A stretch of 24,000 nt of DNA from Dysgonamonadaceae bacterium. Lineage in GTDB: Bacteria > Bacteroidota > Bacteroidia > Bacteroidales > Dysgonomonadaceae. Shown one piece after another: positions 5,855 to 23,514 of this stretch. The translations under genes were made by a program, and so were the position numbers. The number at the start of each line of letters is the position of its first letter. The first letter of the stretch is position 1. Location: NCBI GenBank assembly GCA_032068765.1, contig DAMBHY010000003.1, positions 91,319-115,318 on the forward strand. Reading direction: 5' to 3'. A model generated the notes under the pieces. It was not told the DNA's origin. It did not search any database and saw only the letters and a program-made list of their open reading frames with translations.

Positions 5855-7012
5855 ATGATGACATATTCATTTTTACAACATTACTGGTGGTTTATCGTAT
5901 CACTGTTGGCAGGATTGCTTGTATTTCTTATGTTTGTACAAGGTGGTCAATCCATGATCAGACAGTTAGGAAAAACAGAAGACCAAAGAAAACTTTTGAT
6001 AAATACGATTGGCAGTAAATGGGAATTCACCTTTACTACGCTCGTAACTTTTGGTGGCGCGTTCTTTGCATCATTTCCGTTGTTTTACTCAACAAGTTTC
6101 GGTGGTGCTTACTGGGTGTGGATGCTTCTCTTGTTTGTTTTCATCATTCAGGCAGTATCTTACGAGTATCAATCTAAACCCGGAAACGTTTTCGGAAAAG
6201 AAACTTACAGAACATTTTTGTTCATTAACGGAACTATTGCTCCGTTCGTAATTGGTGTGGCGGTAGCTACTTTCTTCACAGGTTCACTGTTCAGTGTAGG
6301 AAAAGAAAATATAATCGGGTTGAGTGGAACTGGCAATGCTATAAGTCGCTGGGAACATCCTCTTTATGGTTTGGAAGCATTGTTTAATGTGAGAAATCTG
6401 TTGCTCGGATTTGCAGTTTTGTTTCTTGCACGTACGTTAGCAAGTCTATATTTCGTAAATAGATTGAATGACGCCGCTTTAGAATCAAACGCTAAAAAAG
6501 CTTCTTTAAGAAATGGAATTATATTCGTAGTATTTTTCCTTGCTTTCTTAATATGGACTTTGTTTGCAGATGGATTTGCTGTAAATCCTGAAACACAACA
6601 AGTATATCTAGAGAAGATGAAATATCTAAATAATTTCATCGAAATGCCGATTATATTGATTTTCTTCCTTTTAGGAGTAGTAGCAGTATTATACGGAATA
6701 ATAAAAACATATATGAGTGCCAAATTCAAAAATGGTATTTGGTTTGCAGGAACAGGAACAGTTATCACCGTTACCATGCTGTTGTTAGTAGCTGGGTATA
6801 ACAACACAGCATATTATCCATCAGTATTTGGCGATATGAGCAGTTCCTTAACCATCCAAAATTCATCATCTAGTGAATTTACATTGATGGCTATGACCTT
6901 TGTTTCTATTCTAATTCCTTTTGTTTTCGCTTACATATTCTATGCTTGGCGTTCTTTGGAGAAAAAGAGAATGAGTGTGGAAGATATCAAATCCGAACCT
7001 CATAGTTATTAA
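5855..7012 (+). CDS. cydB: Cytochrome bd ubiquinol oxidase subunit II
   Basis: 385 aa polytopic membrane protein directly after cydA. CydB-like N-terminus (LQHYWWFIVSLLAGLLVFLMFVQGGQ). Confidence 0.95.
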   Translation: MMTYSFLQHYWWFIVSLLAGLLVFLMFVQGGQSMIRQLGKTEDQRKLLINTIGSKWEFTFTTLVTFGGAFFASFPLFYSTSFGGAYWVWMLLLFVFIIQAVSYEYQSKPGNVFGKETYRTFLFINGTIAPFVIGVAVATFFTGSLFSVGKENIIGLSGTGNAISRWEHPLYGLEALFNVRNLLLGFAVLFLARTLASLYFVNRLNDAALESNAKKASLRNGIIFVVFFLAFLIWTLFADGFAVNPETQQVYLEKMKYLNNFIEMPIILIFFLLGVVAVLYGIIKTYMSAKFKNGIWFAGTGTVITVTMLLLVAGYNNTAYYPSVFGDMSSSLTIQNSSSSEFTLMAMTFVSILIPFVFAYIFYAWRSLEKKRMSVEDIKSEPHSY

Positions 7013-7163: not shown

Positions 7164-8039
7164 ATGAAAAAGTACTTTCCAACATATTTATTTTTATTGA
7201 TTATTCTTGTTACAGGTTATTCATGTGACAACAAAAATAGTAAATTCAAGAAAGACAACCAATTATCGTTTTCTACACTTGAGGAGAATAAATCTATCAA
7301 ACTTGATTCAACGATTGCGCCGGGAAGTTACACTTTGAATATCAATTTTCTATATCCCAACACAGATAATAAAGAACTGAAGAAATTATTTGTAAAAAGT
7401 TTCTTTGGTGAAACTTATCAAGAACTGGAACCTGAACAAGCAGTCAAGAAATACATGGAAGATAGTTTCTCTGCCTATAAAGAAGATTCGAGCGAACTTT
7501 TCCAAATGCAGGAAGAATCCAGTGAGATGGAAGACAGCATTATCGGTATGGAATCGCACGACGAAGATGCTGAAATGGTAACGAATTTTGTTGAATCTAT
7601 TTCTAATAGTATCGTTTATAATGAATATCAGGTGGTTTCATACAAAGTCACGCAACGATATATGAAGGACAAACGCCGTGGAAGTGAGTCTATTAGAAAT
7701 TTTGTTGTAGACTTAACTACCAATTCTTTAATATCTTTTGAAGATATTTTCAGAGATGGAGCAGAGGACGAACTTCACCAATTGTTCATCAATAATCTTT
7801 TTAAACAAAACAATGTAAATTCCATTGAAGAACTGGAAGAATACGGATATTTTGGATTAGACGAATTGTATCCCAATGACAATCTTTTGGTTGACAATAA
7901 AGGTATTACTTTCTTATATAATCGTGGCGAATATTCCGCTATGCCTATCAAACCGATAGAAATATTTCTCCCTTACAAAGACATTTCATCTTTGCTGAAA
8001 CCAAATACGGTGATTGCTTATATTGCTTCCAAATCTTAA
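7164..8039 (+). CDS. Lipoprotein, diverged paralog of the 423-1289 DUF3298-like protein (lacks GGAHG)
   Basis: The track ORF starts at TTG 7137. ATG 7164 gives MKKYFPTYLFLLIILVTGYSC, a signal peptide with a lipobox. It aligns by eye with the 423-1289 product (INFLYPN..KELKKLFVKSFF vs IKFVYPN..LKKLQKIFVTTFF; IEIFLPYKDISSLLKPNTVI vs IDVFIPYSELKAILKPNSIV). Confidence 0.7.
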   Translation: MKKYFPTYLFLLIILVTGYSCDNKNSKFKKDNQLSFSTLEENKSIKLDSTIAPGSYTLNINFLYPNTDNKELKKLFVKSFFGETYQELEPEQAVKKYMEDSFSAYKEDSSELFQMQEESSEMEDSIIGMESHDEDAEMVTNFVESISNSIVYNEYQVVSYKVTQRYMKDKRRGSESIRNFVVDLTTNSLISFEDIFRDGAEDELHQLFINNLFKQNNVNSIEELEEYGYFGLDELYPNDNLLVDNKGITFLYNRGEYSAMPIKPIEIFLPYKDISSLLKPNTVIAYIASKS

Positions 8040-9452: not shown

Positions 9453-12326
9453 ATGGAAATGGAAAAATTTCAAACACGTCACATCGGTGTAAATGACGCG
9501 GATATAAACAAAATGCTGGAAGTAATCGGCGTAGATAGTTTGGATAAACTTATCGATCAAACCATTCCTTCCGATATACGCTTACAAAAACCTTTGAGCC
9601 TGCCAAAAGCACTTTCAGAACATGAATATGCTGAAGAAATTGCTCAAATAGCGCGCAAAAACAAAATTTATACTTCGTATATAGGTATGGGATGGTACGA
9701 CACCATTACTCCCGCAGCTATCTACCGTAATGTATTCGAAAATCCAGTATGGTACACATCATACACTCCTTATCAGGCAGAAATTTCACAAGGTCGTCTA
9801 GAAGCTTTGTTGAACTTTCAGACAGTAGTAAGCGAACTGACTGCTTTGCCTTTGGCAAACTGTTCATTGCTTGACGAAGCTACCGCCGCTGCTGAAGCTT
9901 CATCAATGATGTACGGATTGCGCTCACGTGACAAAGCAAAAAGCAATTCCGATACATTGTTCGTTGACGAAAATGTTTTTGAAAGCACACTGGCTGTTTT
10001 GCGCACACGCATGGGACATGTAGGAATTGACATTGAAGTGGGTAATTTCAATGACTTCAATTTCGGAGAAAAATATTTCGGGGCTATCCTACAGTATCCA
10101 AACTCAAACGGAAATGTAGAAAACTATCGTGATTTTGTAGAAAAAGCACATGCTGCTGAAATCAAAGTAGCTGTTGCTACAGATTTATTGGCATTGGTAA
10201 TGTTGACACCTCCAGGAGAATGGGGCGCAGATATTGCGTTCGGTTCAAGCCAAAGATTCGGTATACCTATGTTCTACGGCGGTCCTTCTGCTGCTTTCTT
10301 CTCTACAAGAGATGAATATAAGAGAAACATCCCGGGACGTATTATCGGTATCTCAAAAGATGCTTACGGAAAAGAAGCGTTGCGTATGGCATTGCAGACT
10401 CGCGAACAACATATCAAACGCGAAAAAGCGACTTCCAACATCTGTACCGCACAGGCGTTGCTTGCTACCATGACTTCTTTTTATGCGGTGTATCACGGAC
10501 CTGAAGGTTTGAAAAATATCGCTAAACGCGTTCATTCTATCACTTCTCTGGTAGCTGACGAATTGGAAGCTTTGGGCTACAAAGTATTAAATACTACTTA
10601 TTTCGATACTTTAAAAATAGAATTGCCTGAAAACGTTTCTCAAGAAGATATCTACGATATTGCAGATTCTCGCAATATTAACCTGAGATATTTTGGAAGT
10701 GGTGAAGTGGGTATAAGTATCGATGAAACTACCAACGCTTATCGCGTTCACGAATTGTTGGCCGTATTTGCTATGGCGGTAGGCAGTTCGAAAGTATTTA
10801 TGATTGATGATATGCCTGACAAGGTTACTCTTTCAAACGAGCAACTTCGTACTTCAGATTTCCTTCAGCATCCTGTATTCAACAGTTATCACACAGAAAC
10901 TGAATTGATGCGCTATATCAAACGTCTCGAAAGAAAAGATATTTCGTTGGCTCATTCCATGATTTCATTGGGTTCTTGTACAATGAAATTGAATGCCGCT
11001 TCCGAACTTATTCCTTTGGGAATGCCCGAATTGCAAAATATTCACCCATATGCTCCTGCAAACCAAACAGAAGGTTATGCCGAAATGATTGAAGAGTTAA
11101 GCTGCATGCTGGCAGAAATCACAGGTTTTGCAGGCGTTACATTGCAACCAAACTCTGGTGCTGCAGGTGAATATACCGGACTGGTAACTATCGCAAGCTA
11201 TTTAGAAAGCATCGGACAGGGACATCGTAAAATTGTATTGATTCCTGCTTCAGCTCACGGAACAAACCCAGCAAGTGCTATTCAGGCAGGCTACAAAACT
11301 GTAACTGTTGCCAGCGACGAAAGAGGTAACGTAGATATGAACGACTTCCGCGCTAAAGTGGAACAATATAAAAACGACCTCGCTGCTTATATGATTACAT
11401 ATCCTTCTACTCACGGCATTTTCGAAGTTGAAATCAAGGAAATGTGCCGATTGATTCATGAAGCAGGCGGTCAAGTATATATGGACGGTGCAAATATGAA
11501 CGCTCAAGTTGGTTTGACCAATCCAGGAACTATCGGTGCCGACGTTTGCCACTTGAATCTTCACAAAACATTTGCTATACCTCATGGTGGTGGCGGTCCT
11601 GGTGTTGGTCCTATCTGCGTTGCAGAACATTTGGTTCCATTCCTTCCTTCACACCCAGTTATGTTCCCTAATGATAAAAACAATACTGTTTCTGCTGCTC
11701 CTTACGGAAGTGCGGGTGTATTGGAAATCACTTACGCTTACATCAAAATGATGGGTGAAGAAGGTCTTACAATGGCTACCAAAGCTGCTATTCTTAACGC
11801 TAACTATCTTGCTGAAAGATTAAAAGATACTTACGGCGTGTTATATCGAGGAGCACAGGGTAGAGTAGGACACGAGTTGATTATGGAATGCCGCAACATC
11901 AAAGATGCTTCAGGCATCAGCGAAACGGATATTGCAAAACGTCTGATGGACTACGGTTATCACGCACCTACACTTTCATTCCCCGTACACGGAACATTGA
12001 TGGTGGAGCCTACAGAAAGTGAAAGTCTTGCAGAACTCGACCAGTTTGTAGATACAATGAACGAGATTTACAAAGAAGCACAGGAAGTGGCTGAAGGTAA
12101 ATATACCCTTGAAGACAACGTGTTGGTAAATGCTCCACACCCTGAATACGAAGCCGTAGCTGATGAGTGGAATCATGCTTATCCTCGCAGCAAAGCTGTT
12201 TATCCACTTGAATTTGTAAAAAACAACAAGTTCTGGGTGAATGTAGCGCGTGTGGACAATGCTTATGGCGACAGAAATCTAGTAGCTTGTCTGTGTGACA
12301 TCCCTGCCGGAGAACAACAAAACTAG
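9453..12326 (+). CDS. gcvP: Glycine dehydrogenase (aminomethyl-transferring), single-chain P-protein
   Basis: 957 aa. YTPYQAEISQGRLEALLNFQ, the PLP-lysine region NLHKTFAIPHGGGGPG, and full-length single-polypeptide architecture. Confidence 0.97.
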   Translation: MEMEKFQTRHIGVNDADINKMLEVIGVDSLDKLIDQTIPSDIRLQKPLSLPKALSEHEYAEEIAQIARKNKIYTSYIGMGWYDTITPAAIYRNVFENPVWYTSYTPYQAEISQGRLEALLNFQTVVSELTALPLANCSLLDEATAAAEASSMMYGLRSRDKAKSNSDTLFVDENVFESTLAVLRTRMGHVGIDIEVGNFNDFNFGEKYFGAILQYPNSNGNVENYRDFVEKAHAAEIKVAVATDLLALVMLTPPGEWGADIAFGSSQRFGIPMFYGGPSAAFFSTRDEYKRNIPGRIIGISKDAYGKEALRMALQTREQHIKREKATSNICTAQALLATMTSFYAVYHGPEGLKNIAKRVHSITSLVADELEALGYKVLNTTYFDTLKIELPENVSQEDIYDIADSRNINLRYFGSGEVGISIDETTNAYRVHELLAVFAMAVGSSKVFMIDDMPDKVTLSNEQLRTSDFLQHPVFNSYHTETELMRYIKRLERKDISLAHSMISLGSCTMKLNAASELIPLGMPELQNIHPYAPANQTEGYAEMIEELSCMLAEITGFAGVTLQPNSGAAGEYTGLVTIASYLESIGQGHRKIVLIPASAHGTNPASAIQAGYKTVTVASDERGNVDMNDFRAKVEQYKNDLAAYMITYPSTHGIFEVEIKEMCRLIHEAGGQVYMDGANMNAQVGLTNPGTIGADVCHLNLHKTFAIPHGGGGPGVGPICVAEHLVPFLPSHPVMFPNDKNNTVSAAPYGSAGVLEITYAYIKMMGEEGLTMATKAAILNANYLAERLKDTYGVLYRGAQGRVGHELIMECRNIKDASGISETDIAKRLMDYGYHAPTLSFPVHGTLMVEPTESESLAELDQFVDTMNEIYKEAQEVAEGKYTLEDNVLVNAPHPEYEAVADEWNHAYPRSKAVYPLEFVKNNKFWVNVARVDNAYGDRNLVACLCDIPAGEQQN

Positions 12327-12354: not shown

Positions 12355-12390
12355 AAAAAGCCGATAGAATTTATTTCGTCGGCTTTTTTT
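12355..12390 (+). terminator. Rho-independent terminator of gcvP
   Basis: AAAAAGCCGA (12355-12364) pairs with TCGGCTTTTT (12379-12388) and is followed by further Ts. Starts 29 nt after the gcvP stop. Confidence 0.8.
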
Positions 12391-12504
12391 ATTGTATGAT
12401 TTTGTGCAATATTTTTATTTACCAAGCGGTAAAATTTGTACGATAGCGGGGTTTAGAGCAATAAATAAAGGATGAAGGTATATAATTTCTTGTAGTCTCA
12501 ATTG

Positions 12505-12687
12505 TCCGCCCAGCGGAAAGCACCTCTTATATACATTTTGCAGCCGTCCGCTCAGCGGAAAATGGTTTTTGTATATATTTCTTGTAGTCCGCTCAGCGGA
12601 AAATCAACTTTATGTAGTGTGGGGCATTATCCGCCCGGCGGAAAGTGATTTACACGTTATTGACAGCTCATTCCGCAGGGCGGAAAA
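12505..12687. repeat. Array of five phased palindromes TCCGC-N3-GCGGA-AAR with 41-42 bp periodicity
   Basis: The TCCGC arms start at 12505, 12547, 12588, 12630 and 12672, giving spacings of 42, 41, 42 and 42 bp. Each is followed 3 nt later by GCGGA and then AAG or AAA. The intervening AT-rich segments are diverged versions of one another (for example GTATATAATTTCTTGTAGTC at 12478 vs GTATATATTTCTTGTAGTC at 12571). Confidence 0.85.
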
Positions 12688-12909
12688 GTGTTTGCATCGC
12701 TTGCAGGATTTCGACCTATGGTTTGAAAATATTTATTTGAATATAAAAACAGTGAATAAATCTGCTTTATAAAACATTTTCGTAGTTTGCTAGAAAAGGA
12801 TTAGTTTTAGATCGAACACGTTTGTAGTTTTTAAGAAAGTGATGGCGAAGGTTTTAAACTTTCTAATAATAAAAGCGTTGTTATCTACATTACAAAAAAC
12901 ATAGACATA

Positions 12910-13032
12910 ATGAGCAAGACAGCGTGTAAAGATAAAGATTTGATTGAGAAAAAAAATCCCAAATATATCTGCAAAAGGTGCGGATCTACCGTGAAAAAAG
13001 AAAAGCACGTGTGCAAACCAAAGAAATTTTAA
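12910..13032 (+). CDS. Candidate 40-aa basic Cys-rich small protein (CxxC...HxC)
   Basis: Hand translation gives MSKTACKDKDLIEKKNPKYICKRCGSTVKKEKHVCKPKKF*. ATG start with an A-rich upstream context, 14 Lys/Arg, Cys at 6, 21, 24 and 35, His at 33. A hairpin follows 14 nt downstream. No canonical TAnnTTTG lies within 220 bp upstream, which lowers confidence. Confidence 0.35.
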   Translation: MSKTACKDKDLIEKKNPKYICKRCGSTVKKEKHVCKPKKF

Positions 13033-22520: not shown

Positions 22521-22928
22521 ATGTCTTACAATATTGAAGAAATTGAAGGAATCGGTACAGCTTATGCTGCAAAATTGCGTAACTCAGATGTTAATACCAT
22601 AGAAAGTCTTTTGGTAAAGGGGAGTACAAAATCAGGTAGAAGTTCATTGGCAAAAGATACTGGTATTGATGAATCATTAATTTTGAAATGGGTGAATCAC
22701 GCTGATTTAATGCGTATAAAAGGAATAGGACCGGAATTTTCCGAATTATTGGAAGCTGCAGGGGTAGATACTGTAAAAGAATTTCGTACTCGTAAAGCAG
22801 AAAATCTTCACTCTAGAATGGTTGAAGTAAACGATGCTAAAAAGTTAGTAAGAAGAATCCCATCTGTAGAGCAACTAAGCCAAATGATAGAAATGGCAAA
22901 AAATATTGACGCGAAAGTAACTTATTAA
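22521..22928 (+). CDS. DUF4332 domain-containing protein (tandem helix-hairpin-helix-like)
   Basis: 135 aa. IEGIGTAYAAKL and IKGIGPEFSELLEAAGV HhH-like motifs, as I recall for DUF4332. Monocistronic, with its own promoter and terminator. Confidence 0.75.
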   Translation: MSYNIEEIEGIGTAYAAKLRNSDVNTIESLLVKGSTKSGRSSLAKDTGIDESLILKWVNHADLMRIKGIGPEFSELLEAAGVDTVKEFRTRKAENLHSRMVEVNDAKKLVRRIPSVEQLSQMIEMAKNIDAKVTY

Positions 22929-22952
22929 GCCCGCTTTTATTGGAGATATTTT

Positions 22953-22987
22953 AACGCCTACATTAGGGTTACACTAATGCAGGCGTT
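22953..22987. terminator. Long hairpin between convergent genes (likely bidirectional terminator element)
   Basis: AACGCCTACATTAG (22953-22966) pairs with CTAATGCAGGCGTT (22974-22987): a 14-bp stem with one mismatch and a 7-nt loop. There is no strong U-tract on either strand. Confidence 0.5.
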
Positions 22988-22996
22988 GATATTATA

Positions 22997-23016
22997 CTAA
23001 TGCATACATTAGTTTT
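22997..23016 (+). terminator. Second small hairpin plus T-run
   Basis: CTAATG (22997-23002) pairs with CATTAG (23007-23012) around a 4-nt loop and is followed by TTTT. Confidence 0.4.
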
Positions 23017-23019
23017 ATC

Positions 23020-23514
23020 TTAAATTTGAGAATATTCTTTTTTGATATATTCCAACAATCCTTGGCAACCATCTTCTAGTAAATCAAGTACCAATTCAAA
23101 TCCTGAATCGCCGGTGTAATATGGGTCAGGAATATGATCGTAGGGATACTTTTTCAGAAATTCACGCATGCGGTGGATTTTATTTACGTGCTCCTGAGTA
23201 ACTGCGAGCGATTTGACATTGGTGTAATTGGAATCGTCCATCACTACAATTAAATCATATTTGTCAAAATCTTCTGTAATAAATTGCTGCGCGCGGGTGC
23301 AAAAGTTATAATTCCTCTTTGCGCCATGCATACGCATACGTTTATCGGGCAAATCTCCCACATGCCAGCTTCCTGTTCCAGCAGAATCTAAGACTATTTT
23401 GCCGTCTAACCCTTCTTTTTCAACTAGAGATTTCATAATGCCTTCGGCTGCTGGAGAACGACAAATATTCCCGAGACAAACGAACATTATTCTGATGGGG
23501 TTTCCTTCTTTCAT
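23020..23514 (-). CDS. Low-molecular-weight protein-tyrosine phosphatase
   Basis: 164 aa. P-loop CLGNICRS (CX5R-S) near the N-terminus and the DPYY general-acid region. Confidence 0.92.
   Translation of the reverse strand: MKEGNPIRIMFVCLGNICRSPAAEGIMKSLVEKEGLDGKIVLDSAGTGSWHVGDLPDKRMRMHGAKRNYNFCTRAQQFITEDFDKYDLIVVMDDSNYTNVKSLAVTQEHVNKIHRMREFLKKYPYDHIPDPYYTGDSGFELVLDLLEDGCQGLLEYIKKEYSQI

Follow-up and report, generated by a model that had tools for sequence, protein, structure and literature searches.

The locus downstream of gcvP

The present analysis deals with an array of five short GC-rich palindromes in a 24,000-nucleotide (nt) stretch of contig DAMBHY010000003.1 (forward strand, positions 91,319 to 115,318), hereafter the window. 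Its source is an uncultured member of the Dysgonomonadaceae, and its closest named gcvP relatives are Seramator, Petrimonas and Proteiniphilum (78–80% identity). The array lies in the gap behind gcvP (9453–12326 by Pfam) and is followed by an AT-rich tract, as the initial annotation, made from the letters alone, had reported. The array is non-random and real, and it is probably constrained by evolution; in its form it most resembles the selfish repetitive extragenic palindromic (REP) elements that are common in bacteria, not a new regulatory system. The features of the gap, in the numbering of the window, are as follows:

12355..12394, plus strand: intrinsic terminator of gcvP (AAAAAGCCGA ... 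TCGGCTTTTTTT), an inverted repeat complementary at 10/10 positions (12355–12388) and then a T-run
12479..12706, plus strand: whole repeat cluster, five head-to-tail units of 41–42 bp
12491..12495, plus strand: TGTAG motif, 9 nt 5′ of unit 1
12505..12520, plus strand: unit 1 core, TCCGC-CCA-GCGGA + AAG (loop CCT in haplotype L163)
12547..12562, plus strand: unit 2 core, TCCGC-TCA-GCGGA + AAA
12588..12603, plus strand: unit 3 core, TCCGC-TCA-GCGGA + AAA, the sole copy with GTAG abutting its 5′ foot (12584–12587)
12630..12645, plus strand: unit 4 core, TCCGC-CCG-GCGGA + AAG
12672..12687, plus strand: unit 5 core, (T)TCCGC-AGG-GCGGA(A) + AAA, with a 6-bp stem and a loop that reads CCT on the opposite strand
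12539 (TGCAG), 12583 (TGTAG), 12613 (TGTAG), 12661 (TGACAG) and 12702 (TGCAG), plus strand: further tag motifs
12714..12780, no strand assigned: AT-rich tract 3′ of the array, with neither a palindrome nor a TAnnTTTG promoter box
12910..13032, plus strand: small open reading frame (ORF) of 40 amino acids (aa), basic, with 4 Cys and 1 His (MSKTACKDKDLIEKKNPKYICKRCGSTVKKEKHVCKPKKF)

The gcvP terminator stands in front of the array and does not belong to it; the array starts about 110 nt farther on. After the array come the AT-rich tract, the small ORF with a terminator of its own, and then a convergent gene of the beta-lactamase family (bla). The small ORF has no Pfam match, and its product may be a small zinc-ribbon-like protein. 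Gene calling on full-length contigs placed no gene in the gap that holds the array, and any reading frame through the array is broken by the middle 41-bp unit, which makes a 14-codon periodicity impossible.

Anatomy of the array

The five cores, of the form TCCGC-N3-GCGGA-AAR, start at 12505, 12547, 12588, 12630 and 12672, with spacings of 42, 41, 42 and 42 bp. Their loops are, in order, CCA, TCA, TCA, CCG and AGG, and the tails 3′ of the palindromes are AAG, AAA, AAA, AAG and AAA, in which the AA is invariant. All of this agrees with the first description of the array. When the pattern TCCGCNNNGCGGAA was scanned over both strands of the window with up to 1 mismatch, 11 strand-matches were obtained against an expectation of 0.21, a number reached in 0/100 shuffles; ten of them come from the five sites, and the eleventh (17742) lies within a coding region.

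Alignment of the five units by MAFFT gave 13 invariant columns, namely the linker position T12, the ten arm positions and the two A residues 3′ of the palindrome. The core is therefore asymmetric, with AA kept on its 3′ side and no conserved position on its 5′ side. The linkers, of 25–26 nt, are no more similar to one another than shuffled sequences are (z = 1.3, p = 0.10), and Tandem Repeats Finder did not report the array because the linkers are too diverged. Nevertheless, TGTAG, TGCAG or TGACAG occurs once per linker, at a variable offset of 0–12 nt 5′ of the next palindrome; since such a motif is expected by chance only about 0.04 times per linker (an estimate from base composition), it is a real second element with a floating position. 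The GTAG and GCAG tetranucleotides are positioned as the initial annotation described them, adjacent to the palindrome in copy 3 only, and ACAG 5′ of copy 5 can be added to them. Each core on its own is predicted to fold into a hairpin, and the energies are −6.4 to −7.3 kcal/mol for RNA and −4.6 to −5.8 kcal/mol for DNA.

Candidate decayed units upstream or downstream of the array have no statistical support, and this includes the site at 12425–12434, which had been proposed as a degenerate sixth unit. A separate pair of 29-nt segments (12773–12801 and 12815–12843), 42 nt apart and 72% identical, each with GTAG, is located beyond the array; it is out of phase with the main array and is not significant alone.

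Variation within the species and comparison with relatives

All five copies, with identical spacing, are present in 6/6 independent long assemblies, which represent at least three haplotypes. Two of these assemblies are JGI metagenomes, two come from ENA, one is a Logan contig and one is the NCBI metagenome-assembled genome (MAG) GCA_031975855.1. The locus lies on contig DALYMK010000003.1 of this MAG and on the JGI contigs Ga0120936_100004 (692 kb) and Ga0121064_100015 (212 kb). Seven substitutions separate the haplotypes in 12479–12690. Six lie in linkers, the seventh (12512 A>T) changes the loop of the first unit, and the arms and tails, 65 nt in total, have none (P about 0.08 if substitutions fell uniformly). 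The gap as a whole diverges at least as fast as the flanking genes, with 1–3% single-nucleotide polymorphisms (SNPs) against 0.3–1.5%. That the palindrome itself is conserved and is not the product of a recent duplication, as had been argued from the five copies, is supported by identical arms and tails, by randomised linkers and by the position of all seven SNPs outside the arms and tails.

The haplotypes are mosaic in 12425–12814: L164 has the left-hand SNPs of L163, and L168 has its right-hand SNPs, which implies that a recombination event took place near the array's end, somewhere from 12624 to 12758. Short-read Logan contigs from several samples (L001, L003, L004, L005, L157, L167 and L169) start or end at the same bases inside the array, at 12564, 12625 and 12678, the last of which lies within the loop of palindrome 5. 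The break at 12625 is explained by the SNP at 12624. For those at 12564 and 12678, additional strain variants are the most likely cause, or else errors of Illumina sequencing close to GGC and inverted repeats. A site-specific recombination event in the loop was considered as a cause and rejected, and the breaks are not read as evidence for it.

In relatives whose gcvP is 82–84% identical (L174, L175 and L176), the upstream order cydAB-DUF3298-rsmG-MBL-gcvP is kept, and gcvP is followed by a gap of about 80 nt with an equivalent terminator and then by unrelated genes; no palindrome was found after gcvP in them. Synteny with these nearest relatives stops right after the gcvP terminator (from 12326/12327 onward), so the array stands at the breakpoint, and the block of array, small ORF, bla and ftsX is joined to gcvP in this lineage only. 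On the other side, contigs with a beta-lactamase-family protein about 70% identical keep the order ftsX-bla-small ORF, and no palindrome occurs in the 150 nt available 5′ of their small ORF. The small ORF is also conserved beside the beta-lactamase-family gene in two more distant relatives. In a Petrimonas MAG (P0001) the small ORF is 88% conserved in a wholly different context, with an upstream gap of 90 nt. The core, allowing up to 1 mismatch, was not found outside coding regions in about 50 kb from five relatives' contigs. Since the array is absent from relatives, it is lineage-specific, and neither gcvP nor the small ORF is obligatorily paired with it. The comparison of the gap behind gcvP, which had been put forward as a check, thus has two outcomes: near-identical assemblies keep five intact copies, so that there is neither decay nor change of copy number among the six, and conserved palindromes do not extend to the related genomes.

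The surroundings were surveyed over 43 kb, that is, the window and 10 kb past each of its ends. The gene content by Pfam is of a housekeeping kind, including cydAB, rsmG, ftsX, uppP, truB, queA, gyrA, secA and sufB; in addition, one subunit of a type I restriction system is encoded at the far end. Among the genes called there, no par, rep, cas, recombinase or Y1-transposase gene was found, so the earlier statement that no par, rep, cas or REP-associated tyrosine transposase (RAYT) gene is adjacent holds across the whole 43 kb; neither was any further TCCGC-N3-GCGGA found outside coding sequence in it (up to 1 mismatch).

These data bear on one of the rival explanations, a neutral minisatellite that arose by replication slippage, is recognised by no protein and has GC-rich cores that are conserved in appearance only. 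Its intergenic position, its restriction to one lineage and its place at a rearrangement junction are what such a repeat would show, and comparable arrays elsewhere do vary in copy number (see below). However, 60 positions (12 per copy) are identical while the linkers look like shuffled sequence, and at a genome GC content of 35–40% neutral mutation is expected to erode GC-rich cores first. Moreover, cores and copy number are invariant in at least three haplotypes, against 1–3% SNPs in the surrounding gap. A neutral origin is regarded as quite unlikely.

The same core in other genomes

GTDB species representatives were scanned for two cores 34–49 bp apart, which gave at least 119 loci, and a metagenome scan for three cores gave 22 loci. 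The locus of the window itself is not among the matches listed in either scan, and its source contig is apparently absent from the metagenome collection. Because the matches were selected by the search pattern, they cannot show enrichment; what they can show is the company in which the core is found.

In a Tepidisphaerales genome, at least seven loci have inverted pairs of the form GTAGGTTCCGC-N3-GCGGAAC ... GTTCCGC-N3-GCGGAACCTAC, in which the core TTCCGC-N3-GCGGAA stands 3′ of GTAG. Direct arrays with periods of 41–43 bp occur in one MAG of the Acidobacteriota and on several high-GC metagenome contigs without classification, in which GTAG is followed by a longer palindrome centred on TCCGC-N3-GCGGA. 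Within the Bacteroidota, a Chitinophagaceae MAG has an array of 5 × 41 bp, and Tannerella sp. oral taxon 808 has 6 × 41 bp of TCCGC-GGC-GCGGAAAG at one locus and two copies at another, the orthologous locus of which has at least four copies in a metagenome. Members of this 41-bp Tannerella repeat family (TCCGCGGCGCGGAAAGCATCAAAAATCCATTTTGGGTCAGA) lie in L112 at 7445–7705, in L006 at 5881–5935 and in L133 at 1859–1986. The linkers of the window resemble the Tannerella unit with z = 2.4 when the tail is included and z = 1.4 when it is not; such similarity is marginal, and homology is therefore not claimed. For the Tannerella and Chitinophagaceae units alike, linker homology is marginal or absent and was rejected. 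Arrays in other Bacteroidota flank unrelated housekeeping genes and have no gene association in common.

The scans also brought up other repeats. A Bacteroides-like element (L062 3446–6730 and L131 314–3639, also L035 and L139) has clusters of TTTTTCCGCCGGGCGGAAAAA hairpins that flank a 409-aa protein with a Cys motif (CPICGKPDWC); in L131, DnaX- and DnaE-like genes come next after the region of this protein, and the element has the look of a replication module from a phage or mobile element, in which the hairpins would be terminator-like and bidirectional. Units of TCCGCGTAGCGGA-TATAGTATTGTAG are found at three Bacteroidota loci, L019 (7124–7237, minus strand), L093 (about 480–545) and L105 (2101–2190): L019 has three 26-nt repeats with unrelated sequence of about 23–26 nt between them, and L093 and L105 have in common a longer conserved multi-hairpin segment. 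These loci may be a mini array resembling CRISPR, or the end of an element. In the Prevotella MAGs L061, L109, L113 and L123, intergenic repeats TTCCGCAnTGCGGAAyrTAyr with a 21-bp period alternate with degenerate copies. Within the window itself, an AT-rich 23-bp tandem repeat (22952–23018, 2.9 copies, 63% matches) lies between the convergent ORFs 22521–22928 (plus strand) and 23020–23514 (minus strand).

The regular spacing raises the question of phasing, and a phased array that binds protein as duplex DNA is another rival explanation. A dimeric protein would hold the 5-bp arms across a free 3-bp spacer, and the five sites, all on one face of the helix, would act cooperatively; such an array would be an upstream regulatory platform, e.g., for the small ORF or bla, or a structural or centromere-like site. 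In keeping with this, the arms are identical in sequence, beyond mere complementarity, with the loops left free; the spacing is held at 41–42 bp though the linkers differ, with seemingly compensating indels; the copy number is stable across haplotypes; and the lack of other copies in 43 kb gives the array a locus-specific look. On the other hand, the AA tail is one-sided and the 5′ flank is unconserved, so that the site is not two-fold symmetric. There is no regulator, par or rep gene within 43 kb, the array is missing from relatives that keep both neighbouring gene blocks, and there is neither a promoter box in or beside the array nor similarity to plasmids or phages. Furthermore, the periods of other arrays with this core are spread evenly over the permitted 39–44 bp, so that 42 bp, or four helical turns, is no shared rule. 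We consider this explanation unlikely. The initial annotation had likened the layout to iteron origins and the sopC centromere of the F plasmid: that proposal keeps a low probability, and against it stand the one-sided tail, the missing par and rep genes, the lack of plasmid or phage similarity and a period that is not special. In a broader form of the same idea, a putative sequence-specific protein of this lineage would have the five cores as its own landing pad, in helical phase, and would bind either the duplex DNA or its transcript; the array would then be a locus-specific regulatory or structural device and not a selfish repeat. This form is likewise doubtful; one candidate for such a protein is the adjacent conserved 40-aa basic, Cys-rich protein.

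Element classes considered

Known classes of element were compared with the array one by one. An origin of replication of the oriC type was rejected: DnaA-like boxes are scattered, with one in the gap and no cluster, and cumulative GC skew climbs almost uninterrupted over the window, with no switch at the array. A plasmid or phage origin was rejected as well, as no similarity was found to 72,556 plasmids or 50,697 phages; two viral contigs contain a dimer of the pattern, and both are unrelated. A sopC-type centromere or iteron origin was set aside in view of the absence of parA/parB or initiator genes in 43 kb and of this lack of plasmid and phage similarity. For CRISPR, the conserved repeat of 16–17 nt, the TG(Y)AG motif common to the spacers and the absence of cas genes in 43 kb led to rejection. 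Ends of the kind found in MITEs (miniature inverted-repeat transposable elements) or in BrickBuilt elements are not supported, the best flank-to-flank inverted match being no better than shuffles (p = 0.33). A bacterial interspersed mosaic element (BIME) was rejected too, because all tails are on the same side and linker similarity is not above shuffles.

The hairpins are not intrinsic terminators, as had been concluded at the outset. No U-tract is adjacent; the tails are A-rich on the plus strand, and on the minus strand U precedes the hairpins. Only copy 2 has a T-run, which starts 6 nt downstream and was flagged by a loose terminator scan. The Bacteroidetes −7 box TAnnTTTG was not found in or beside the array. 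In Rfam, no match in the window reached the gathering score and no family fitted at E up to 10 either; the best score overlapping the array is 18.2 bits against a threshold of 100.

It is also conceivable that the array is read as a transcribed, structured RNA, in which the five hairpins and their AAR tails would either form the leader of the small ORF or lure away an RNA-binding protein as a decoy with several sites. The same hairpin is predicted for every unit by itself (−6.4 to −7.3 kcal/mol for RNA), the one-sided tail is compatible with strand-specific reading, and folding of the 251-nt region is better than that of shuffled sequences (z = −2.7 on the plus strand and −3.5 on the minus strand), although these z-scores of the whole region are uninformative because every unit can pair with every other. 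There is no covariation, because the arms never vary. The evidence on the other side is the lack of an Rfam match even at E up to 10, the lack of a TAnnTTTG promoter upstream, the gcvP terminator that precedes the array, and the conservation of the small ORF in relatives that lack the array. The proposal in the initial annotation of an RNA leader for the small ORF is weakened by the last of these points and by the Rfam result, and a functional RNA of either kind is considered improbable.

Proposed interpretation as a REP-like cluster

What remains to be considered is a low-copy, head-to-tail, REP-like cluster that is read as a folded single strand. This is the reading we prefer, tentatively and at somewhat less than even chances. 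REP elements are recognised by RAYT/TnpA_REP enzymes as a stem-loop on one strand. The following scheme can be proposed. An ancestral unit of about 42 bp, TTGTAG-TCCGC-N3-GCGGA-AAR, which is still intact in copy 3, would have been amplified in tandem at the rearrangement junction just 3′ of the gcvP terminator. The linkers would then have drifted to near randomness, with the TG(Y)AG tag as an apparent remnant of GTAG, and the hairpin and tail would have stayed identical because they are the recognised part. The folded single strand, either single-stranded DNA at the replication fork or RNA, would be recognised by a sequence- and structure-specific protein, most plausibly a Y1 HUH enzyme of the RAYT/TnpA_REP type, and effects on the neighbouring genes would be incidental.

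Two features of the array speak for recognition of this kind. First of all, every copy in every strain has the same arm sequence, with a loop that is free to vary, which argues for sequence-specific recognition, not a purely structural need. Secondly, the one-sided AA and the directional tag fit strand-specific reading of a stem-loop better than they fit a two-fold symmetric duplex site.

The published features of REPs point the same way. Stems of 5–13 bp have been described, with loops of 2–3 nt in many families, many of which agree with a TY or CMA consensus, and in the GTAG-1/2 families the untagged end carries a 3-bp tail (PMC3733652). Here, a short extragenic stem-loop is found in 5/5 copies, with a 5–6-bp stem at the lower limit of the published range, a 3-nt loop and an intergenic position, and the tail expected for GTAG-1/2 is AAR in 5/5. 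A GTAG (GYAG/GTRG) at the foot of the stem is not general to the copies, since it is adjacent in copy 3 only and 3–12 nt off elsewhere. The 5-bp stem, the YCA/CMA-type loops, the AAR tail and the GTAG abutting copy 3 would, by analogy, best fit a REP. Clusters are frequent among REPs, and a Thauera family with a 5-bp stem is largely clustered (PMC3733652). GTAG families were not reported for Bacteroidetes in the survey of Di Nocera et al. 2013 (PMC3733652), and a TnpA_REP subclass peculiar to the Bacteroidetes is flanked by weak hairpins of an atypical kind that lack the canonical GTAG (PMC6006769).

The setting of the array is also best fitted by this interpretation: the array is lineage-specific and stands at a synteny breakpoint, and the small ORF occurs elsewhere without it. 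The same core behind GTAG in Tepidisphaerales, Acidobacteriota and high-GC contigs, together with the multi-locus arrays of Tannerella, suggests by comparison that the core belongs with REP-like families. Bacteroidota arrays flank unrelated housekeeping genes, and Rfam matches, U-tracts, oriC features and plasmid or phage signals are lacking, which again fits best here. Among the three readings of the initial annotation, the REP/BIME-like one accordingly fares best, on account of its asymmetric unit, its GTAG-like tag and the occurrence of the same core in REP-like families, and it stops short of established membership in the REPs.

Several observations weigh against a REP-like origin. No other non-coding copy exists in the 43 kb or in the roughly 50 kb of the five relatives' contigs, so a dense REP family is unlikely, and no Y1 transposase or RAYT is among the genes in the 43 kb. 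GTAG is adjacent in 1/5 copies only. All units are arranged head-to-tail, which is a rare configuration for REPs (PMC3733652). All six assemblies have the same copy number, five, in contrast to the Tannerella arrays, and the likeness of the linkers to the Tannerella unit is marginal, as said above. Moreover, perfect cores with randomised linkers suggest long-term selection at the locus, which a purely selfish element does not predict, and a constraint on phasing would fit the spacing, which stays at 41–42 bp although the linkers seem to have indels.

If the REP-like interpretation is true, the array would be a Bacteroidales example of minimal REP-type elements, with a 5-bp stem, a one-sided tail and a phased head-to-tail cluster. 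It would be useful because the cognate elements of Bacteroidetes-type RAYTs are poorly described, and it would give a concrete sequence for these enzymes. Caution is due, as perfect cores with randomised linkers resemble an array made for binding. Should the genome contain no second such array, this one would offer a tractable case, on a small scale, of selection that keeps five identical sites in phase.

Comparison with known systems

Like sopC of the F plasmid and iterons, the array has tandem units (of about 42–43 bp), each with a short inverted repeat, in helical phasing; unlike them, it is chromosomal and lies among housekeeping genes, its units are not near-identical and its site is asymmetric. 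With the BIMEs of E. coli it has in common a cluster of REP-type palindromes in an intergenic gap 3′ of a gene. In BIMEs, REP orientation alternates and linker motifs are conserved, whereas the units of the window all point in one direction and their linkers are mutually unrelated. The arrays of Tannerella sp. oral taxon 808 are similar in being intergenic, in their 41-bp period, in the core TCCGC-N3-GCGGA and in an AAAG tail; they differ in having units about 95% identical (by eye), several loci and a variable copy number.

Two further kinds of repeat are similar in outline. The BrickBuilt minisatellite-MITE of P. gingivalis has 23-nt units without spacers and inverted-repeat ends (PMC4596501); it is, like the present array, an intergenic tandem repeat of Bacteroidales, but the array has no significant flanking inverted repeats, and its linkers are diverged. 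CRISPR also has identical short palindromic repeats, regular dissimilar spacers and an AT-rich flank, but CRISPR repeats are 24–48 bp long (PMC3733652), whereas the repeat here is 16–17 nt, its 25–26-nt spacers have a motif in common, and no cas gene occurs in the 43 kb.

The GTAG-superfamily REPs, especially the short-stem, clustered families of the GTAG-1-like type, differ from the array in that its tag floats over 0–12 nt, its units are head-to-tail with a fixed period, its linkers are randomised, and neither a RAYT nor further copies occur in the 43 kb. They resemble it in the short, extragenic, GC-rich stem-loop, in the 3-nt tail, in the GTAG-like tag and in clustering. In summary, nothing links the array to a new mechanism; it is compatible with an element type already known, though its form is slightly unusual and its phylum under-described.

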